From positions 1 to 38,311 of the IMG/VR virus record IMGVR_UViG_2534681700_000007: a stretch of DNA of 38,311 bases; one strand, given 5' to 3'. The translations under genes and the position numbers were made by a program. A model generated the notes under the pieces. The model had not been told where the DNA came from. It worked only from the letters and a program-made list of their open reading frames with translations, and did no database searches. Source of the stretch: a virus. Its lineage: Duplodnaviria; Heunggongvirae; Uroviricota; Caudoviricetes. Below, piece after piece: positions 1,532 through 20,044 of this stretch; within the stretch, counting starts at the first letter, position 1, and every line of letters begins with the position of its first letter.

Positions 1532-1741
1532 TTAATTTGAATACAATGCAATTCTCGAGGACTGAAGTTTCTCGCAATTAAAATTTATCAGTTTTACTTT
1601 CTGCTCTCTGGAAACGCCTGCTTCTTTTTTACCTGAGAGCATTTTTTCGCATTCTGATTTCGTTAGTTTAGATTTTGAATATCTTGTCCAGTTAGTAGGA
1701 GTGCCACCTTCCTTTTCAATAGTGGCGGTAATTTTATACAT
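1532..1741 (-). CDS. ydaC: Small Rac protein YdaC-like, 69 aa from MYKITATIEKEGG
   Basis: ORF 1532..1813; the internal start gives a 69-aa product and an 8-nt overlap with ralR; position between xis and ralR. Confidence 0.55.
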   Translation of the reverse strand: MYKITATIEKEGGTPTNWTRYSKSKLTKSECEKMLSGKKEAGVSREQKVKLINFNCEKLQSSRIALYSN

Positions 1742-1984: not shown

Positions 1985-2794
1985 TTATTCCTCTGAATTA
2001 TCGATTACACTGTATTCCCCGGTTAATACAGAGGAATCTGCAGGATCGATTGTCAGTGGTTCCTTTTCATCCATTGATACTGCACGCTGGATCTCAATTG
2101 ATACGGGCAAATATTTGAACAGGCGACGAATAGCCGTTTTCTTTGCCATTTCTTCCCAGTGAGTTACCCACGGCCCGTTATTACCAGCTTTACTCAGGCT
2201 GCGCACCAGCTCAATCTGTTTGCGCGTCATAACTTCAAACTGAGTACCTCCGTCTTTCAGTCTTGCGACAGCATAGACGTGGGTAACCGGGGCATCTTCG
2301 TTTTCTCCCGGGCGGTGTATTAACTTTTCATCAAGGCCAAATTCGAAGCTAAACTCGTCACCTTCACGGACAACACGGGCTGACAGGCTGGCGATTTGAC
2401 CAGAACGGCGAGCCAGATCAATCATGCCGCGATAGCCAATGATTAGCTGAACGTTCTTTTTACCGCTCTTTTCGTTTTTATTACCAAAAGGCAGTAAATA
2501 TGCATGACCGAGGGCGCTACCTGGCTCAAGTCCGAGCTGTGAACACTGTACGATCGCACTGACAAAACTCATAGTGTCACAGTTTCCTAACGCCGGAACT
2601 TTACGAATTTCTGTGGTGGCGATACGGATCATACGTTCAGCCGTCATATGGCGTGGAAGAGCTGCTGCCAGTTGCTCTTTCATTGATGGCTGGTTAATAA
2701 AACTAATCACGTCGCTATTTTTAACTGCTGCTGGTGCACGATTTCCCTGAGTTTTTTGCAGATCGGCTTTTGCGATTGGTGGTTGCTTAGTCAT
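1985..2794 (-). CDS. recT: Single-strand annealing recombinase RecT, 269 aa
   Basis: ORF 1985..2851 trimmed to [21 protein letters not shown] (the RecT N-terminus); its start overlaps the recE stop by 8 nt. Confidence 0.9.
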
Positions 2795-6671: not shown

Positions 6672-7160
6672 ATGTTGGATGTATTTACTCCATTGTTGAA
6701 ACTTTTTGCTAACGAGCCACTCGAAAGACTTATGTATACGATTATCATTTTTGGTCTCACTCTCTGGCTGATACCGAAAGAGTTTACTGTCGCATTCAAC
6801 GCTTATACTGAAATACCTTGGCTCTTTCAGATTATCGTTTTTGCCTTTTCTTTCGTGGTCGCCATTTCCTTCTCAAGATTGCGAGCACATATTCAAAAGC
6901 ATTATTCATTACTACCAGAGCAACGAGTATTGCTTCGTTTATCTGAGAAAGAAATCGCTGTATTTAAAGATTTCCTTAAAACAGGAAATCTTATTATCAC
7001 TTCTCCTTGCCGTAACCCGGTTATGAAAAAATTAGAACGGAAGGGCATCATTCAACATCAGAGTGATAGCGCAAACTGTTCTTATTATCTCGTCACCGAA
7101 AAATACTCCCATTTTATGAAGTTATTCTGGAACAGCAGGAGTAGACGTTTTAATCGTTAG
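6672..7160 (+). CDS. sieB: Superinfection exclusion protein SieB, 162 aa from MLDVFTPLLKLFANEP
   Basis: ORF 6549..7160 trimmed to the ATG at 6672; two predicted transmembrane helices near the N-terminus; recognised as SieB. Confidence 0.8.
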   Translation: MLDVFTPLLKLFANEPLERLMYTIIIFGLTLWLIPKEFTVAFNAYTEIPWLFQIIVFAFSFVVAISFSRLRAHIQKHYSLLPEQRVLLRLSEKEIAVFKDFLKTGNLIITSPCRNPVMKKLERKGIIQHQSDSANCSYYLVTEKYSHFMKLFWNSRSRRFNR

Positions 7161-7312
7161 CTTACTGTGTGCTTCTTCAACCATCGGCGCGCACCAGTTT
7201 CGGTTTTAAATGTTTTGCTTTTGGTATACGTCATGGCAGTGAACGTTCCATCCTGGTTGGGGAACACGCCGCACACCAGGGATTCGTTGTTGCCGAGGTC
7301 GATTTTTTGCAT
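7157..7312 (-). CDS. ydaF: Small protein YdaF-like, 51 aa (MQKIDLGNNESLVCGVFPNQDGTFTAMTYTKSKTFKTETGARRWLKKHTVS)
   Basis: Hand-translated small minus-strand ORF; its stop overlaps the sieB stop; position matches ydaF in Rac. Confidence 0.45.
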   Translation of the reverse strand: MQKIDLGNNESLVCGVFPNQDGTFTAMTYTKSKTFKTETGARRWLKKHTVS

Positions 7313-7322
7313 TTTGCGAATC

Positions 7323-7457
7323 TCACATCTTGTTGCTACGTATAGCGACTTCTGCCTGCCAGAGATCCCAGTCGTTGCTGCGTAAAGCCTGCACAGCCTG
7401 GTTGTAAGTGATACCGCAACAATCCATCAAATACTGAACTACTTCGTAATGCACCAT
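7323..7457 (-). CDS. ydaG: Small protein YdaG-like, 44 aa (MVHYEVVQYLMDCCGITYNQAVQALRSNDWDLWQAEVAIRSNKM)
   Basis: Hand-translated small minus-strand ORF directly downstream of the leftward promoter module at 7627-7655. Confidence 0.45.
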   Translation of the reverse strand: MVHYEVVQYLMDCCGITYNQAVQALRSNDWDLWQAEVAIRSNKM

Positions 7458-7626
7458 CTTATCTCTCCCCTTAACGCCGGGTGGCGGAACTAACTACTGC
7501 ACTGCAAAATTTGAATCCCGCCGTCATGTTCATACGCCTCGGGCTGGCTACTTAACCCCTTACCACTGCCTGGTAACTCGAAGTATTGCCCGGCGTTCTG
7601 TGGGGCGGGGTGGGTGGTATGCTGGA

Positions 7627-7672
7627 ACTATAGGTAATGCCTAATTGATTGTCAATAGGCTATGCCTAATGT
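7627..7672 (-). promoter_or_regulatory. Leftward (PL-like) promoter/operator module downstream of racR: minus-strand -35 TTGACA (7655..7650), 17-bp spacer, -10 TATAGT (7632..7627), with GCCTAAT/ATTAGGC repeats
   Basis: Read directly from the sequence. Its reverse complement (CATTAGGCATAGCCTATTGACAAT...) is nearly identical to the rightward module at 8291-8339. Confidence 0.45.
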
Positions 7673-7765
7673 TTTGAGCGTAACCTAATAGGTGATGGCG
7701 ACAGCAGAAAGTGATGGGGGGGTTAAATAACGGAATCCAGGAGTTTTCCGTCAGACCATATAAGT

Positions 7766-8242
7766 TTAAGTTCCAGTTTTTGTGATGTTCTGGCTTTTCC
7801 GTTCAGATTCTAGAGCTTTCAGATACTTACCCACTTTCATTTCCATCGCTGCTATATAGGCGCGAACATCGTGGTCAACCCAATCTGGTTCTGTAGCATT
7901 TCCAGATAACAGGAAAGCTACAATCGCTCTTATTTCATCAGAGGCTGCTTGATAAAGGTTGTTTATATCTAAAATTTCACTTTTTGTATCTGAATTGGTG
8001 GGGGTTGGTATGGGGTATTCGTTAAGCCCCCAATGCTCTGGACCAACAACATCAGAAAAGAAACGCCATAATTCTGGAAGTTTATCTTTACTTATAGAGC
8101 CTTTCTTAATCCAGTCATAAATTGATGGTGGTTGGACTTTGAAGTGGCGTGCGACCTCCGCCTTTGATTTGACGGATCCCGATGCGATTTTTTTGTTAAT
8201 GGCCTGCTCTATCGCTCGGCCTAAGTCTTTACCACTAAGCAT
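7766..8242 (-). CDS. racR: Prophage repressor RacR, 158 aa
   Basis: ORF in the track; N-terminal helix-turn-helix region (QPPSIYDWIKKGS); recognised as RacR; divergent from ydaS. Confidence 0.85.
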   Translation of the reverse strand: MLSGKDLGRAIEQAINKKIASGSVKSKAEVARHFKVQPPSIYDWIKKGSISKDKLPELWRFFSDVVGPEHWGLNEYPIPTPTNSDTKSEILDINNLYQAASDEIRAIVAFLLSGNATEPDWVDHDVRAYIAAMEMKVGKYLKALESERKSQNITKTGT

Positions 8243-8290
8243 TGCTTAATATTCTCCTATGCGCATTACATTAGGCAATCCCTACCCTTA

Positions 8291-8339
8291 CCGCATTAGG
8301 CACAGCCTATTGACAATTGCGTTAGGCGTCGCCTAATAT
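8291..8339 (+). promoter_or_regulatory. Rightward (PR-like) promoter/operator for ydaS: -35 TTGACA at 8310..8315, perfect 15-bp palindrome TTAGGCGTCGCCTAA at 8322..8336 across the spacer and -10
   Basis: Read directly from the sequence; the palindrome position is typical of a repressor operator overlapping the promoter. Confidence 0.45.
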
Positions 8340-8365
8340 TTCTGTGTGTTTTTGGAGTTCATTCG

Positions 8366-8662
8366 ATGAAAAAAGAGAACTATTCATTCAAGCAAGCTTG
8401 TGCTGTTGTCGGTGGGCAATCAGCAATGGCTAGGCTTTTAGGTGTATCACCTCCAAGCGTAAATCAATGGATCAAAGGGGTACGTCAATTGCCTGCCGAG
8501 AGATGTCCAGCAATTGAACGTGCAACAAGAGGTGAGGTTCTGTGCGAAGAACTTCGTCCTGATATTGACTGGTCATATTTACGACGTTCGGCATGTTGTT
8601 CGCAGAATATGTCAGTGAAGCAACTAAATGACAGTAACAAATCCTCATTTGATCATACCTGA
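8366..8662 (+). CDS. ydaS: Cro-like HTH protein YdaS, 98 aa
   Basis: ORF in the track; HTH signature (QSAMARLLGVSPPSVNQWIKG); first gene of the rightward operon divergent from racR. Confidence 0.8.
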   Translation: MKKENYSFKQACAVVGGQSAMARLLGVSPPSVNQWIKGVRQLPAERCPAIERATRGEVLCEELRPDIDWSYLRRSACCSQNMSVKQLNDSNKSSFDHT

Positions 8663-8684
8663 AACATCAAGAGGCAAATGATTC

Positions 8685-9107
8685 ATGAAAATCAAGCATG
8701 AGCACATCGAATCAGTGTTGTTAGCCCTGGCTGCTGAAAAAGGGCAGGCATGGGTAGCCAATGCCATTACTGAAGAATATCTGCGCCAGGGGGGCGGCGA
8801 ATTGCCCCTGGTACCAGGCAAGGACTGGAACAATCAGCAGAATATCTATCACCGTTGGTTGAAAGGTGAAACGAAAGCGCAAAGGGAAAAAATTCAGAAA
8901 CTGATCCCTGCGGTTCTGGCAATCCTTCCGCGCGAGCTGCGTCACCGACTCTGCATCTTCGATACCCTGGAACGCCGTGCATTACTGGCGGCGCAGGAAG
9001 CGTTAAGTACGGCAATTGATGCGCATGATGATGCAGTCCAGGCCGTTTACCGGAAAGCGCATTTCAGCGGCGGCGGGTCTTCCGACGATTCTGTCATTGT
9101 TCATTAA
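8685..9107 (+). CDS. ydaT: YdaT, 140 aa (toxic/CII-like partner of YdaS)
   Basis: ORF in the track, immediately downstream of ydaS; recognised as YdaT. Confidence 0.75.
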   Translation: MKIKHEHIESVLLALAAEKGQAWVANAITEEYLRQGGGELPLVPGKDWNNQQNIYHRWLKGETKAQREKIQKLIPAVLAILPRELRHRLCIFDTLERRALLAAQEALSTAIDAHDDAVQAVYRKAHFSGGGSSDDSVIVH

Positions 9108-11529: not shown

Positions 11530-11859
11530 ATGGCAAAAGTATTTACACAAGAAGGGCGGGAAAAAATTAAAGGGCAGGTTGTTGAACTCGTGCGCCAGAG
11601 TGGGCGCGAGACGTTACGACAACTGGAAGCTAAGACAGGTGCGACAAGATATCTGATGAACCTTCTTGCCAGAGAATTGGTTGCGAGCGGTGATGTATAC
11701 AACTCTGGTTACGGGTTATTTCCCTCAGAACAGGTTCGTAAAGACTGGCAAAACGCCCGCAAAAAACTATCAAGGGCAAAGGTGAAGAAACCGGTTGTGG
11801 TTGATCCTGACCTTATCTGGTCATTACCTGACGGAGAAATCCGTCGCCTTAGTCTTTGA
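11530..11859 (+). CDS. Hypothetical protein, 109 aa from MAKVFTQEGRE
   Basis: ORF 11515..11859; the ATG at 11530 is preceded by GGAGG; function unknown. Confidence 0.45.
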   Translation: MAKVFTQEGREKIKGQVVELVRQSGRETLRQLEAKTGATRYLMNLLARELVASGDVYNSGYGLFPSEQVRKDWQNARKKLSRAKVKKPVVVDPDLIWSLPDGEIRRLSL

Positions 11860-11894
11860 TAATAGGTTTATAATGTTGAAAAAGAGTCTAATAG

Positions 11895-11924
11895 TTGACA
11901 TTGTATGAAATATGATTGTTATAT
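11895..11924 (+). promoter_or_regulatory. Sigma70-like promoter for the NTPase gene: perfect -35 TTGACA at 11895..11900, -10-like TTATAT at about 11919..11924
   Basis: Read directly from the sequence, in the AT-rich tract upstream of the ATG at 11961. Confidence 0.4.
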
Positions 11925-12100
11925 AAAATGATTTTTTTGGATACTGTTTAAGGTAAACAAATGAAACCAGAATACTTAAGAAAAATAGAATCATTGCAAC
12001 GTGAGGTTGATGATTTCCATCCAGTGCTAAGAGCGCTTCTACCACGTTTGCCGACTGTTACACATGTTGAATATAAGCAAGGACCATCAGAAAAAGGTGC

Positions 12101-12108
12101 TGATTTTG
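12101..12108. repeat. IS1 target-site duplication, left copy (TGATTTTG)
   Basis: Identical 8-mer immediately flanks both ends of IS1 (12101..12108 and 12877..12884). Confidence 0.8.
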
Positions 12109-12163
12109 GGTGATGCTGCCAACTTACTGATTTAGTGTATGATGGTGTTTTTGAGGTGCTCCA

Positions 12164-12439
12164 GTGGCTTCTGTTTCTATCAGCTGTCCCTCCTGTTCAG
12201 CTACTGACGGGGTGGTGCGTAACGGCAAAAGCACTGCCGGACATCAGCGCTATCTCTGCTCTCACTGCCGTAAAACATGGCAACTGCAGTTCACTTACAC
12301 CGCTTCTCAACCCGGTACGCACCAGAAAATCATTGATATGGCCATGAATGGCGTTGGATGCCGGGCAACCGCCCGCATTATGGGCGTTGGCCTCAACACG
12401 ATTTTCCGCCATTTAAAAAACTCAGGCCGCAGTCGGTAA
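12164..12439 (+). CDS. insA: IS1 InsA, 91 aa
   Basis: Translation [43 protein letters not shown]... recognised as InsA; the A6C frameshift motif (AAAAAAC at 12415..12421) lies near its 3' end. Confidence 0.9.
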
Positions 12440-12861
12440 CCTCGCGCATACAGCCGGGCAGTGACGTCATCGTCTGCGCGGAAATGGACGAACAGTGGGG
12501 ATACGTCGGGGCTAAATCGCGCCAGCGCTGGCTGTTTTACGCGTATGACAGGCTCCGGAAGACGGTTGTTGCGCACGTATTCGGTGAACGCACTATGGCG
12601 ACGCTGGGGCGTCTTATGAGCCTGCTGTCACCCTTTGACGTGGTGATATGGATGACGGATGGCTGGCCGCTGTATGAATCCCGCCTGAAGGGAAAGCTGC
12701 ACGTAATCAGCAAGCGATATACGCAGCGAATTGAGCGGCATAACCTGAATCTGAGGCAGCACCTGGCACGGCTGGGACGGAAGTCGCTGTCGTTCTCAAA
12801 ATCGGTGGAGCTGCATGACAAAGTCATCGGGCATTATCTGAACATAAAACACTATCAATAA
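12358..12861 (+). CDS. insB: IS1 InsB frame, 167 aa (made as InsAB' by -1 frameshifting)
   Basis: Translation [51 protein letters not shown]... recognised as InsB. Confidence 0.85.
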
Positions 12862-12876
12862 GTTGGAGTCATTACC

Positions 12877-12884
12877 TGATTTTG
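12877..12884. repeat. IS1 target-site duplication, right copy (TGATTTTG)
   Basis: See left copy at 12101..12108. Confidence 0.8.
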
Positions 12885-15006
12885 TCATAATTAAACGAGA
12901 TGAGGCATTAGACGAGGAAATATATATTGGTGTTATTTGTAAAGTTGGAAAGATAATTCAGTCAAATAGTGAGGTTGAACGACAAATAGAAGAGTGTCAA
13001 TTATATCCACGCTTTATTTCTTCTGGCTCTAAGAACATACATTTGAATGAAATTTGGGTTATTACTAATTCATCGATCTCAAATAATGCTCAAGAAAAAA
13101 TTTACTTGAAATTCAAATCTACAAATATAAAATTTATAGAGGGTGAAAAAATATGTTCTTTAATCAGTAAATATTACCCAGAGTTTTGGGATTTCGAATC
13201 CATTAATTATGAACAATACTTAACAGATACATTGCAAACCATAAGTGATACACCTGAAAGCTCTTTTTTTGGTAGTGTTGGCATAAATAACCTTATTGAT
13301 AGATATGTAAGCAAGGAAGATCATAAAAAACGCAGACACAGGCCGTTAAAACTGTATAGTGTTGTGAGAGCCGAGAGATTTATTTTTTTAGAGGGAACCG
13401 TTGGCTCTGGGAAAAGTACTTTGCTGAAACAGTTAATTAGAAAAATAAAAGAAGAATATTCTTACGAAAAAGACTACATCCTTCCAGTATTTTGTCAATA
13501 CAAGGATGTTCTAGAAAAAAAACTTAATGTTGAAAATATAATACAAAGTGTGTTAAGTAAGTACAAAATACAACATGATGGGAATATTTTATTAATTGTT
13601 GATTCGGTGGATGAAGTAAAGGAATCACTTGAGGAAAGGCAAAACAATTTCAGGGACATTGTAGAGAAAGTATCCAGGAATGATAAAATTCGATTACTAG
13701 TTGCTTCAAGAATTATGGATTCTCTTCAGGACTATGAAGTTATCGATCAGATGTTTGCAAGATACTCGATAATACCACTTAGCACAGGTCAAATAATCGA
13801 CTTTGTAGATAAAATCTGCAATGACATTAAAATAACAAATAAACTTAAAAATGGTATAGAAAAAACACCACTATTTAAGTTCATTCCCAGGACTCCAGTG
13901 AGCGCTATTCTTCTGGCAAGAATACTCTCTGATGAGATTAAAGAATTACCATCTACAATGACAGAACTATACTCAAAATACAGTGAGATAGTATTGGGAC
14001 GATGGGATACATCTAAGGGATTATTATCGCAAACAGAATATGATGTAATAAGTAATATATTAGTAGAAATTGCGATATTTATGATGGATAACTCTCTAAA
14101 CTGCATATCAATTTCAGAAGTGCAGGACATGTTTTTAAATTATTTGGCCAAAAGAAACTTGAATGTTGATGAGGACAAACTTTTCAAAAGACTAATTTAT
14201 CGCAGTGAAGTAACAACAGTTAATGTTAGAAGTAATACGTTCTCATTTCTACACAGATCATTCATGGAGTATTTTTACGCTGAAGGACTTAGGAAGCGTG
14301 GCCTAATAGACATAAATGATAATATTTATGATATTTATTGGGCAAATAGTTATTTCTTCTATTTTGGTTTGTTAAGAGACAATGAATATCTTATTGATAA
14401 AATTAATGAACTTAAACCTAGTAACGATAAAACAAGATTTTTAAGGTTATTTTATAACGGTTCTTTTTATTTGGCTTCATATCTAACTCCGTATAAAAAA
14501 ATAACGAGGGGAGTCCTTTTATCATATATAGATGCAGGTAAATTATATGTTGATATTCTCAAGGGAAATACCGACATCCCGCTGAAGGAGTTTTCACCAG
14601 TAGCTCTTCTTTGTATTTTCACAAAGTGTTTAAGTAACAATTACGCATATGATTTTTTCAAATCTGCCTTGGAAGACTTGTCAGTTCAAATTGAACAATA
14701 TGAGGAAATTGGTGAACATATTGATTATGCACGTTTCTTCATAGCATCAACACTGAATGAGCTCGGGGATAAATCCGCATTTGATAGCTTAGTGGAAAAA
14801 AATAAATTAGGTGTTTTGATTAATTTAGGGATAACTCACGTTACAGACGACTCAGGGCTACTTAGCACTACGGTTGATAAGTACCTGAAAAAATTCAATA
14901 AAAAAGTACGAAGTAACCATGATATGTCTAATTATATATCTAAGTTATATGAGGAATCTACAGGTTCCTTACGTACAAACCTGCAAATTCAATAATAAAT
15001 AGATTG

Positions 15007-15041
15007 TCACATTGAAGGTAACGTATCGACCTTCAATGTGA
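15007..15041 (+). terminator. Strong stem-loop (13-bp stem TCACATTGAAGGT / ACCTTCAATGTGA, 9-nt loop) 12 nt after the NTPase stop; possible terminator
   Basis: Perfect inverted repeat read from the sequence; the downstream tract is only weakly T-rich, so terminator function is uncertain. Confidence 0.35.
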
Positions 15042-15363
15042 TGATTATCCTCTTGATAATATAGCTTAAGCTACTTTCGACTTTCTGAGACAAAGAGATT
15101 GCAGAATGTACCAATCATAGTGAAGCTATCGTAAATGTTCGCACGTCGCTCAAATCAGATAGTCATATTTGAGTGAACTGCTTACTCAAAATGCTGGTTG
15201 GGGCCTGACTTAATACATCTGAAGAAGTGTTGGTTATGTTTGGCTGTTGTGTTCCATTGCCAAAGAAAAAATAGATAAACTATACCCAATAGTTGTATTG
15301 AATCACTGACGAGACAGCCTCATATTTATCAGGACTGGTGTGCGTCCAATACAGGAGGTTGTC

Positions 15364-15453: not shown

Positions 15454-15606
15454 TTTCATATTGGCGAAGTAAAGGGGGTTAAATAGTATGGCTGCGGGGG
15501 CTTGAGGCTATCTGCCTTGGGCATGAAAACCAAAGGCAGATAGAAAAAGTCCCAGTTGATATTACGCATCCGGCAAGAGGCTTAACATTAATCTGGGGCC
15601 CAATCT

Positions 15607-15819
15607 ATGCCTTACAAACGTAGGTTAGTCTCTTACGTGCTGAAAGGCAAGAAGAAGCGGGCTATGAAGCAGCAAAAGGCGATGTTAATCACCCTGATCG
15701 TCATCTGTTTAACCGTTATAGTGACGGTACTGGTAACGAGGAAAGACCTCTGCGAGGTACGAATCCGAACCGACCAGACGGAGGTCGCTGTCTTCACAGC
15801 TTACGAACTTGGGGAGTAA
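15607..15819 (+). CDS. mok: Mok (modulation of killing) reading frame, 70 aa, same frame as hok and N-terminally extended
   Basis: The 70-aa ORF contains the ...KRAMKQQKAM... junction typical of chromosomal mok/hok pairs. Confidence 0.65.
   Translation: MPYKRRLVSYVLKGKKKRAMKQQKAMLITLIVICLTVIVTVLVTRKDLCEVRIRTDQTEVAVFTAYELGE
15664..15819 (+). CDS. hok: Hok/Gef-family type I toxin, 51 aa (MKQQKAMLITLIVICLTVIVTVLVTRKDLCEVRIRTDQTEVAVFTAYELGE)
   Basis: Recognised Hok-family sequence, closest in my recollection to HokD/RelF and HokC/Gef; one transmembrane helix followed by the conserved RKDLCEV...EVAVF motif. Confidence 0.85.
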   Translation: MKQQKAMLITLIVICLTVIVTVLVTRKDLCEVRIRTDQTEVAVFTAYELGE

Positions 15820-19512: not shown

Positions 19513-20044
19513 GGGCTGGTTTATTGTATGCCAAATGATTATTAAAAAGGTTGTGTTAATAACAAAATCCGAAATAATATGCCTGCATATTTTTATCTTG
19601 CTTATATTCTGCATATTGTGCATAGCAGGCTCATCCCTGCAATCAAAACTGTATGATGAGTATTTTTTGTTTTCCTTTTTTCCAGTCATCTGATGATGAC
19701 CTGCTTCTTTTTAATCCGGATCGACATCAGTTTTTTAAGATAATTCCTGCGAGTTATATGCATAAATACCACAAACTCCGCATTTTATGTGGTTGGGAGT
19801 TGCCGGGCGCGCAGTGAGTTTGCTAAGAAAACTCCTGCATGGTGAATCCCCCTGTGCGGTGGGGTGATACCATTAACCTTTTCTGTCGCCGACAGGTATC
19901 ACGAACATTTTGTTCACCGGGAGGCACCCGGCACCATGCACTTCAATAGATTCTCTCCACATTATGGATATTCTTTCAGAATATCCCACGCAGACTTTGT
20001 GTAAATGTTAACAAATGTGCGTTTTATTTGATCTGATTCGCTGT

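Follow-up and report, generated by a model that had tools for sequence, protein, structure and literature searches.

We analyzed a 38,311-nt stretch of viral DNA (IMG/VR record IMGVR_UViG_2534681700_000007; the whole stretch is called the window here), focusing on the repressor gene racR and on the two promoter and operator modules that flank it. The window contains the immunity region of a full-length Escherichia coli prophage of the lambdoid Rac type; over positions 7400..8700, it is 99.8% identical to FORC 064 and 99.5% identical to K-12 MC4100. The racR gene (7766..8242, minus strand) encodes 158 amino acids and is annotated as racR in RefSeq relatives. Its product scored 244.1 bits against the NCBIfam equivalog NF049929, above the curated cut-off of 200. 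In Pfam, this RacR gave only a sub-threshold match to HTH_17, no S24 peptidase domain was found in it, and no sequence relative was detectable among PDB structures. At a distance of 123 bp, racR is divergent from ydaS (8366..8662, plus strand), the Cro-like first gene of the rightward operon (Pfam YdaS_toxin, 2.6e-31; P22_Cro, 3.4e-9), which is followed by the CII-like ydaT (8685..9107, plus strand). On the other side of racR lies ydaG (7323..7457, minus strand), the first gene of the leftward operon, present in the list of open reading frames (ORFs) and labeled "phage protein" in RefSeq. It is followed by ydaF (7157..7312, minus strand) and, further left on the minus strand, by kilR, ydaE, racC, recE, recT, ralR, rcbA, xisR, and intR. 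Within this leftward block, sieB is encoded by the opposite strand.

A preliminary description of the window had placed mirror-image modules on both sides of racR, the left copy facing the ydaG side and the right copy facing ydaS-ydaT. The gene identities and facing directions given there matched the ORFs and the annotation. Both module strings are present, although shifted by 1-2 nt from the coordinates proposed: they lie at 7633..7671 (minus strand) and 8294..8333 (plus strand). They are indeed nearly the same, with 32 identical positions over 39/40 nt and one 1-nt gap, and a repeat search also detected the pair as a 35-nt inverted repeat with 83% complementarity. A perfect TTGACA is found in each module, as had been noted, at 7655->7650 (minus strand) and 8310..8315 (plus strand). 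The ungapped 24-nt core CATTAGGCANAGCCTATTGACAAT has exactly two copies in the window, one per strand. No further match to this core with up to three mismatches was detected in the window, and none was detected in 100 dinucleotide shuffles.

The shared ATTAGGC heptamer had been suggested for a scan of the whole window. We found six copies against 4.2 expected, which is not significant, and window-wide enrichment of the heptamer was rejected; nevertheless, five of the six copies fall in the two modules. Only the 15-bp inverted repeat TTAGGC-N3-GCCTAA discriminates. With up to two mismatches allowed, it has five sites in the window (1.16 +/- 1.13 expected), a number reached in 0 of 100 shuffles. 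All five are inside the two modules, at 7630 and 7655 on the left and at 8271, 8296, and 8322 on the right, the latter covering the ydaS and racR promoters. The left sites are 25 bp apart, and the right sites follow each other at 25 and 26 bp. The top two sigma-70-like sites in 7100..8700 coincide with the modules as well: a leftward promoter (PL), TTGACA-17-TATAGT, with 11/12 consensus positions (7655->7627, minus strand), and a rightward promoter (PR), TTGACA-18-TAATAT, with 10/12 (8310..8339, plus strand). In both modules, the last base of the distal operator is the first T of the -35 box, and the first 3 nt of the -10 box belong to the proximal operator.

The right module comprises PR, which is the ydaS promoter (PydaS), and its operators (OR). 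Its TTGACA at 8310..8315 was assigned as the -35 box of the mapped ydaS promoter (PMC9638921), and its -10 box TAATAT is located at 8334..8339 (plus strand). OR1 at 8322..8336, the palindrome TTAGGCGTCGCCTAA, is perfect (0 mismatches), as described before; it covers the spacer, overlaps the first 3 nt of the -10 box, and corresponds to O1 of the published work (PMC9638921). OR2, TTAGGCACAGCCTAT at 8296..8310 (1 mismatch), abuts the -35 box of PR and mirrors the distal operator of the left module. An additional operator in the racR promoter region, TTAGGCAATCCCTAC at 8271..8285 (2 mismatches), was found in Escherichia lineages only; by our own reading, it is presumably one of the "four inverted repeats" of an earlier study (PMC11014345). 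The racR start codon is overlapped by CTAAGCATTGCTTAA at 8235..8249 (3 mismatches), which is O3 of PMC9638921 and lies in a region footprinted in the literature. In more distant lineages, the O3 equivalent has 1-2 mismatches and is located at position -7 relative to the racR ATG.

This module has been characterized experimentally by others. RacR bound the 123-bp racR-ydaS intergenic region in an electrophoretic mobility shift assay (EMSA) and in chromatin immunoprecipitation (ChIP), and it repressed a ydaS reporter (PMC5700373). Primer extension revealed a single ydaS promoter with TTGACA/TAATAT, and exchange of the -10 box (TAATAT to CCCGGG) abolished its activity (PMC9638921). DNase I footprints led to an ATTAGGC monomer motif and to (T/A)TAGGC-N3-GCCTA(T/A) operators, and the site at the ydaST promoter was protected first, at the lowest RacR concentration (PMC9638921). 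RacR behaved as an octamer in size-exclusion chromatography, and the authors proposed four dimers on four intergenic inverted repeats (PMC11014345). All three studies take the racR-ydaS intergenic region as the sole RacR target in Rac (PMC5700373, PMC9638921, PMC11014345).

The left module has the same plan. The candidate PL combines the perfect -35 box TTGACA at 7650..7655 (minus strand) with the -10 box TATAGT at 7627..7632 (minus strand; 5/6 positions of the consensus in the promoter scan). Its promoter-proximal operator, OL1, reads TTAGGCATTACCTAT on the minus strand (7630..7644, 2 mismatches); it lies over the spacer and extends into the -10 box by its first 3 nt. The distal operator, OL2, reads TTAGGCATAGCCTAT on the minus strand (7655..7669, 1 mismatch) and ends on the first T of the -35 box. 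A possible, weakly evidenced OL3, TTAGGTTACGCTCAA in minus-strand reading, is located at 7674..7688, 19 bp from OL2. It has 3 mismatches here and 2 in some Escherichia coli lineages, and it is absent outside Escherichia lineages. Overlapping this site just upstream of OL2, two tail-to-tail half-sites with one base between them (ACCTATTAGGT, minus strand, 7683..7693) were observed; they are kept in Escherichia lineages, including the O157 type, and are absent elsewhere. Apart from position 8292, the operators and both promoters are identical to those of K-12. This position, C in the window and T in K-12, is the sole K-12 difference within the operator region and is located in an inter-operator spacer.

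Conservation of the left module was analyzed in RacR relatives from species-representative genomes, IMG/VR, and GenBank phages; the 39 distinct proteins obtained fell into 14 clusters at 85% identity. In 13 of the 14 clusters, the coding strand of the repressor gene carries, downstream of that gene, two operators exactly 25 bp apart. The clusters with the module come from Escherichia, Mixta, Morganella, Proteus, Achromobacter, Pigmentiphaga, and metagenomic viral contigs and span two orders. In all these lineages, the left pair carries GCCTATTGAC(A), a TTGACA-type -35 box (TTGACA or a 1-nt variant), and a -10 box at a 17-nt spacer. E. coli lineages have the -10 hexamer TATAGT; TAATAT, TAATCT, or TACTAT takes its place in the others. 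Wherever the pair exists, OL1 and OL2 are 25 bp apart; the OR1-OR2 spacing is 24-26 bp across lineages. The module was also found, with 97% identity, in Escherichia phage vB_EcoS-683R6. Klebsiella phage KpF5 (L239), analyzed separately, has the same pair ~1.4 kb beyond the repressor gene, with a DUF450 gene between. L174 lacks the left pair, but only 597 bp of its downstream sequence are available, and L175 of the same cluster has the pair.

In a comparison of 62 distinct PL modules, conservation reached at least 90% (~1.8-2 bits) at the half-sites and at the -35 box, and the string GCCTATTGAC is likewise at least 90% conserved. Far fewer bits are carried by the N3 spacers, by the sequence that separates the two operators, and by the flanks. 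Conserved half-sites and -35 boxes with diverged spacers are expected of a selected protein-binding promoter and not of recent common descent. The left pair begins 61 to 2738 bp past the repressor stop codon. Where this gap is longer, it holds cargo genes, for example, DUF450 in KpF5 and a lipoprotein-like ORF in L012. At several of the loci with longer gaps (L171-L186, L012, and L239), a GC-rich stretch followed by a T run, resembling an intrinsic terminator, was seen just before OL2.

In the Burkholderiales relatives, an N-terminal domain of the RacR type, with ~75% identity across the first 77 residues, is joined to Peptidase_S24 (PF00717; 1e-13 and 4e-15). These fusions are encoded in Achromobacter, Pigmentiphaga, and related viral contigs (L011, 2501..3598; L012, 2501..3406; and L171-L186). 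Their loci retain TTAGGC-N3-GCCTAA operators at both PL and PR. Since the same operators are kept at both promoters, operator specificity follows the DNA-binding domain. With the operators retained, the fusion represents a domain swap by which repressors of one specificity occur in a non-cleavable and an SOS-cleavable form.

The leader between PL and ydaG (~160 nt) was found with ~87% identity in thousands of E. coli genomes, and in Qin-like prophages it precedes the ydfA (DUF1391)-dicB operon. In two heteroimmune Qin-like prophages, homology to Rac begins 7-9 nt after the -10 box. Upstream of this point, each of the two has a repeat of its own at both PL and PR: one carries ACC(C/T)(A/G)TGGGTA, the other ATGTAC(T). 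The mosaic junction is thus at the predicted transcript start, and in both cases the motif of both putative promoters changes with the repressor, as a model with paired left and right operators requires. Since homology ends at the transcript start, the immunity cassettes appear to be heteroimmune alleles on a common early-left operon.

Further, indirect evidence comes from published studies in which RacR was lowered either by CRISPR interference (CRISPRi) on racR or by a C protein that blocks the racR gene at its start. Upon RacR depletion, ydaG, ydaF, ydaE, and racC increased ~40-fold, kilR, ydaC, and ralA more than 70-fold, and xisR and intR ~100-fold, with recET and ralR also within the 40-100-fold range (PMC6765115, PMC11014345, bioRxiv 10.64898/2026.09.06.749655). 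The ~40-fold increase of ydaG, the gene next to PL, was reported in PMC6765115. Both types of depletion cut racR transcription; by our reasoning, the leftward transcripts therefore cannot stem from read-through out of the racR promoters and require a promoter downstream of racR.

These observations suggest that racR is located between two outward early promoters of the same plan and that RacR represses both operons in the manner of lambda OL/OR. We put the probability of this explanation at roughly 0.85. The preliminary description had offered the same reading: its right half is experimentally established in the literature, and its left half is supported indirectly but consistently. That the left module is a RacR-repressed PL/OL is, as a prediction from the DNA, well supported. 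PR would drive ydaS-ydaT and the replication genes, and the previously unannotated PL, with a start at ~7619-7622 (minus strand), would drive ydaG-ydaF-kilR-ydaE-racC-recE-recT-ralR-rcbA-xisR-intR. Each promoter would be served by two 15-bp RacR operators, 25-26 bp from center to center. The center of the distal operator would lie near -42, abutting the -35 box, and that of the proximal operator near -17, occluding the spacer and the -10 box. RacR dimers on the operator pair, probably binding cooperatively, would exclude RNA polymerase; the fixed 25-bp operator spacing is compatible in its geometry with pairwise cooperative binding. With RNA polymerase excluded at both modules, one repressor would silence both early operons, and loss of RacR would open both promoters. 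The anatomy of the modules and their conservation are observed here, and RacR binding and repression at PR as well as leftward derepression are taken from the literature. RacR binding at OL, the activity and start site of PL, and cooperativity are the steps that we infer.

Several points weigh against this model. The published EMSA, ChIP, and footprint data all concern the racR-ydaS intergenic fragment (PMC5700373, PMC9638921). In an existing model of kil silencing, which invokes no PL, transcripts that start at the racR promoter undergo Rho-dependent termination within racR (PMC4150792). The leftward response may be partly indirect, because overexpression of YdaS alone promotes Rac excision. 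In the one exception among the clusters, Klebsiella sp. R390 (L009), no OL was found within 2.45 kb, and its PR is degenerate too. At this locus (2400..2500), TTTTAT replaces TTGACA and OR1 is weakened, and it has the look of a remnant in decay. The affinity of OL1 for RacR may be below that of OR1, because in E. coli lineages OL1 has two mismatches, both in the half-site shared with the -10 box. In Escherichia lineages, this half-site reads ACCTAT or TCCTAT, which makes a better -10 box (TATAGT) and a poorer operator than OR1. We speculate that PL is perhaps leakier than PR for this reason. As to Rho, its silencing of kil is compatible with PL and is not an alternative to it. Rho could act on PL transcripts because their leader is C-rich and untranslated for ~160 nt.

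Could the left module be an auxiliary RacR site only, a looping partner that strengthens PR repression and racR autoregulation or a roadblock to racR read-through, with the leftward genes driven from elsewhere? RacR is octameric in solution (PMC11014345), lambda CI has known distant auxiliary operators, and the start sites mapped so far do not include one at the left module. However, a -35 box and a -10 box at 17 nt are kept together with the operators in every lineage that has the pair, which is needless for a pure binding site, and PL matches the consensus at 11/12 positions. The heteroimmune homology, moreover, starts where a transcript start would place it, 7-9 nt after the -10 box. The same leader is also present in Qin-like prophages upstream of ydfA, where the dicBF transcript from the studied promoter dicBp starts. 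We therefore consider a purely auxiliary site very improbable. Equally little credence is given to the idea that the left module is a dead relic, with leftward silencing exerted mainly by Rho/NusG on racR transcripts and derepression arising indirectly via YdaS, YdaT, or excision. A Rho-dependent terminator inside racR, trac, does limit a downstream reporter (PMC4150792), Rho and NusG are reported to silence kilR, and YdaS alone affects excision. Against this stand the maintenance of the module in 13 of 14 lineages from two orders and in isolated phages, and the effect of a block to racR transcription, which raises the leftward genes instead of lowering them.

The involvement of YdaS is a different matter. 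The Cro-like YdaS could read the shared motif as well, or read it at the left module in place of RacR, giving a competition of the Cro/CI type at OL/OR. The ydaS gene matches the P22_Cro family, and YdaS overexpression triggers Rac excision. In prophage CP-933P, the footprints of YdaS and of the repressor PaaR2 overlap, and both proteins regulate the promoter PL933P (PMC8630535). On the other hand, Rac YdaS was reported not to repress racR (PMC9638921), and the literature searched yielded no footprint of YdaS on Rac DNA. We regard a role of YdaS at the shared motif as possible though rather unlikely; it would complement repression of PL and PR by RacR and would not replace it.

The predicted PL leader was inspected for further elements. 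It spans 7458..7621 (minus strand), with its start placed at ~7619-7622 from the position of the -10 box, and it ends before the ydaG ATG at 7457. The predicted transcript opens with ~30 nt that are very rich in C, poor in G, and similar to a Rho entry site. A structured RNA in 7458..7621 was not supported: the single-sequence fold gave z = -1.46, Rfam yielded no match to the leader even at E values up to 5, and when nine diverse leaders were folded jointly with RNAalifold, the covariation term was -0.16 and only one pair kept a double change. A small ORF in the leader was also rejected: many variants read TAAG at the position of its first ATG, and the frame beyond is shifted by indels of 4-8 nt. 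A search for a second copy of the leader downstream of PR, as in a put-like pair, gave nothing above chance (blastn, word size 7).

Outside the immunity region, the prophage in the window is a longer Rac type and not K-12 Rac, and FORC 064 is most similar to it. To the right of ydaV, the FORC 064 relative carries genes for a DNA cytosine methyltransferase and an ATP-dependent nuclease and a Hok/Gef gene, which correspond to ~11700..15200 of the window (via L235, 12131..15790). None of the three was seen in the shorter stretch of K-12 MC4100 Rac that was examined. Rfam matches at gathering score were obtained for the RalA antitoxin small RNA (1557..1735), the sok antitoxin (15496..15669), and STnc100 (19807..19993). 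A Hok/Gef gene is annotated in FORC 064 near the position that corresponds to the sok match.

The right module has thus been published already, and the left module is apparently undescribed in the literature searched. RacR sites downstream of racR are not mentioned in the RacR papers, in the 2025 YdaT paper, or in the 2026 CRISPRi preprint; each of the RacR papers names ydaG 0-1 times and never ties it to an operator. No Rac left operator was found in the RacR, KilR, and Rho papers that were searched, nor were genome-wide RacR binding data; a 1996 paper that named racR and kil may have noted such sites. Conter et al. are said to have introduced these gene names in that year. Rac is a much-studied prophage, with recET recombineering, the division block by KilR, RalR/RalA, and the essentiality of RacR among its subjects. 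In current models, every RacR operator lies in the racR-ydaS interval, and kilR silencing is explained via Rho. PL/OL would give RacR a direct route to kilR, recET, xisR, and intR, and it predicts the map positions of mutations that switch on the leftward operon. Among such mutations might be the old ones of the sbcA type, which activate recE. Conservation across the family provides a consensus for spotting RacR-type immunity regions in other bacteria. The principle is a textbook one, and the finding is therefore useful to the specialist and not surprising.

PL/OL also opens a different reading of the RacR octamer. It may bridge OL1-OL2 and OR1-OR2, enclosing racR in a loop of ~0.67 kb, instead of binding as four intergenic dimers. 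We propose this tentatively, at somewhat less than even odds, together with the idea of a portable immunity unit. Such a unit would consist of the RacR DNA-binding domain and the PL/PR cassettes, combined with either a non-cleavable oligomerization domain (Enterobacterales) or an SOS-cleavable S24 domain (Burkholderiales) and with 0.06-2.7 kb of cargo separating the repressor gene from PL. If true, the OL-OR loop would couple repression of PL and PR with racR autoregulation. Between operator centers, OL and OR are ~0.67 kb apart here and ~0.6-3.9 kb apart across the family. Helical phasing of OL and OR (~616-667 bp in the short-loop lineages) showed no common phase and is uninformative at such length.

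In phage lambda, cI is located between PL/OL and PR/OR, with cro divergent from it; the operators are 17 bp long, three of them at OL, and OL and OR are ~2.3 kb apart. Rac resembles lambda in having the repressor gene between two outward early promoters, with a repeated palindromic operator that overlaps the -35 and -10 boxes and with adjacent operators ~2.3-2.5 helical turns apart. In both, PR is followed by a Cro-like gene and then by a CII-like one (ydaT in Rac), and the repressor forms octamers (for RacR, see PMC11014345). In contrast to lambda, the Rac operator is the 15-bp TTAGGC-N3-GCCTAA, two OL operators are conserved, and the OL-OR distance is ~0.67 kb. RacR, moreover, lacks an S24 autocleavage domain, and no N or nutL was recognized in the Rac leader.

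Two other prophage switches are also similar. In the dicA/dicC/dicBp region of Qin, as in Rac, a short non-cleavable repressor gene is followed by a PL-like promoter in the same orientation, dicBp, and the leader and DUF1391 gene of Qin-like prophages are ~87% homologous to the Rac PL leader and ydaF. Repression of dicBp by DicA was demonstrated experimentally, and its operators resemble those of the dicA-dicC region (PMC10448788). The repressor and the operator sequence differ between Qin and Rac. The PaaR2/YdaS/YdaT region of CP-933P shares with Rac a YdaS/YdaT-type switch and a second promoter, PL933P, beyond the repressor operon. PL933P has -35 and -10 boxes identical to those of PR933P and similar operators, its repressor is octameric, and it was tested with reporters (PMC8630535). 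It differs from Rac in that PaaR2 is a different repressor that uses 18-bp palindromes with the half-site consensus GTTTAGTAA and in the presence of a toxin-antitoxin pair separating the repressor from PL. PL933P is thus a reporter-tested promoter, whereas the Rac PL is predicted from sequence. The published RacR operators, O1-O3 or the "four inverted repeats," are the Rac right module itself, with identical motif and promoter.

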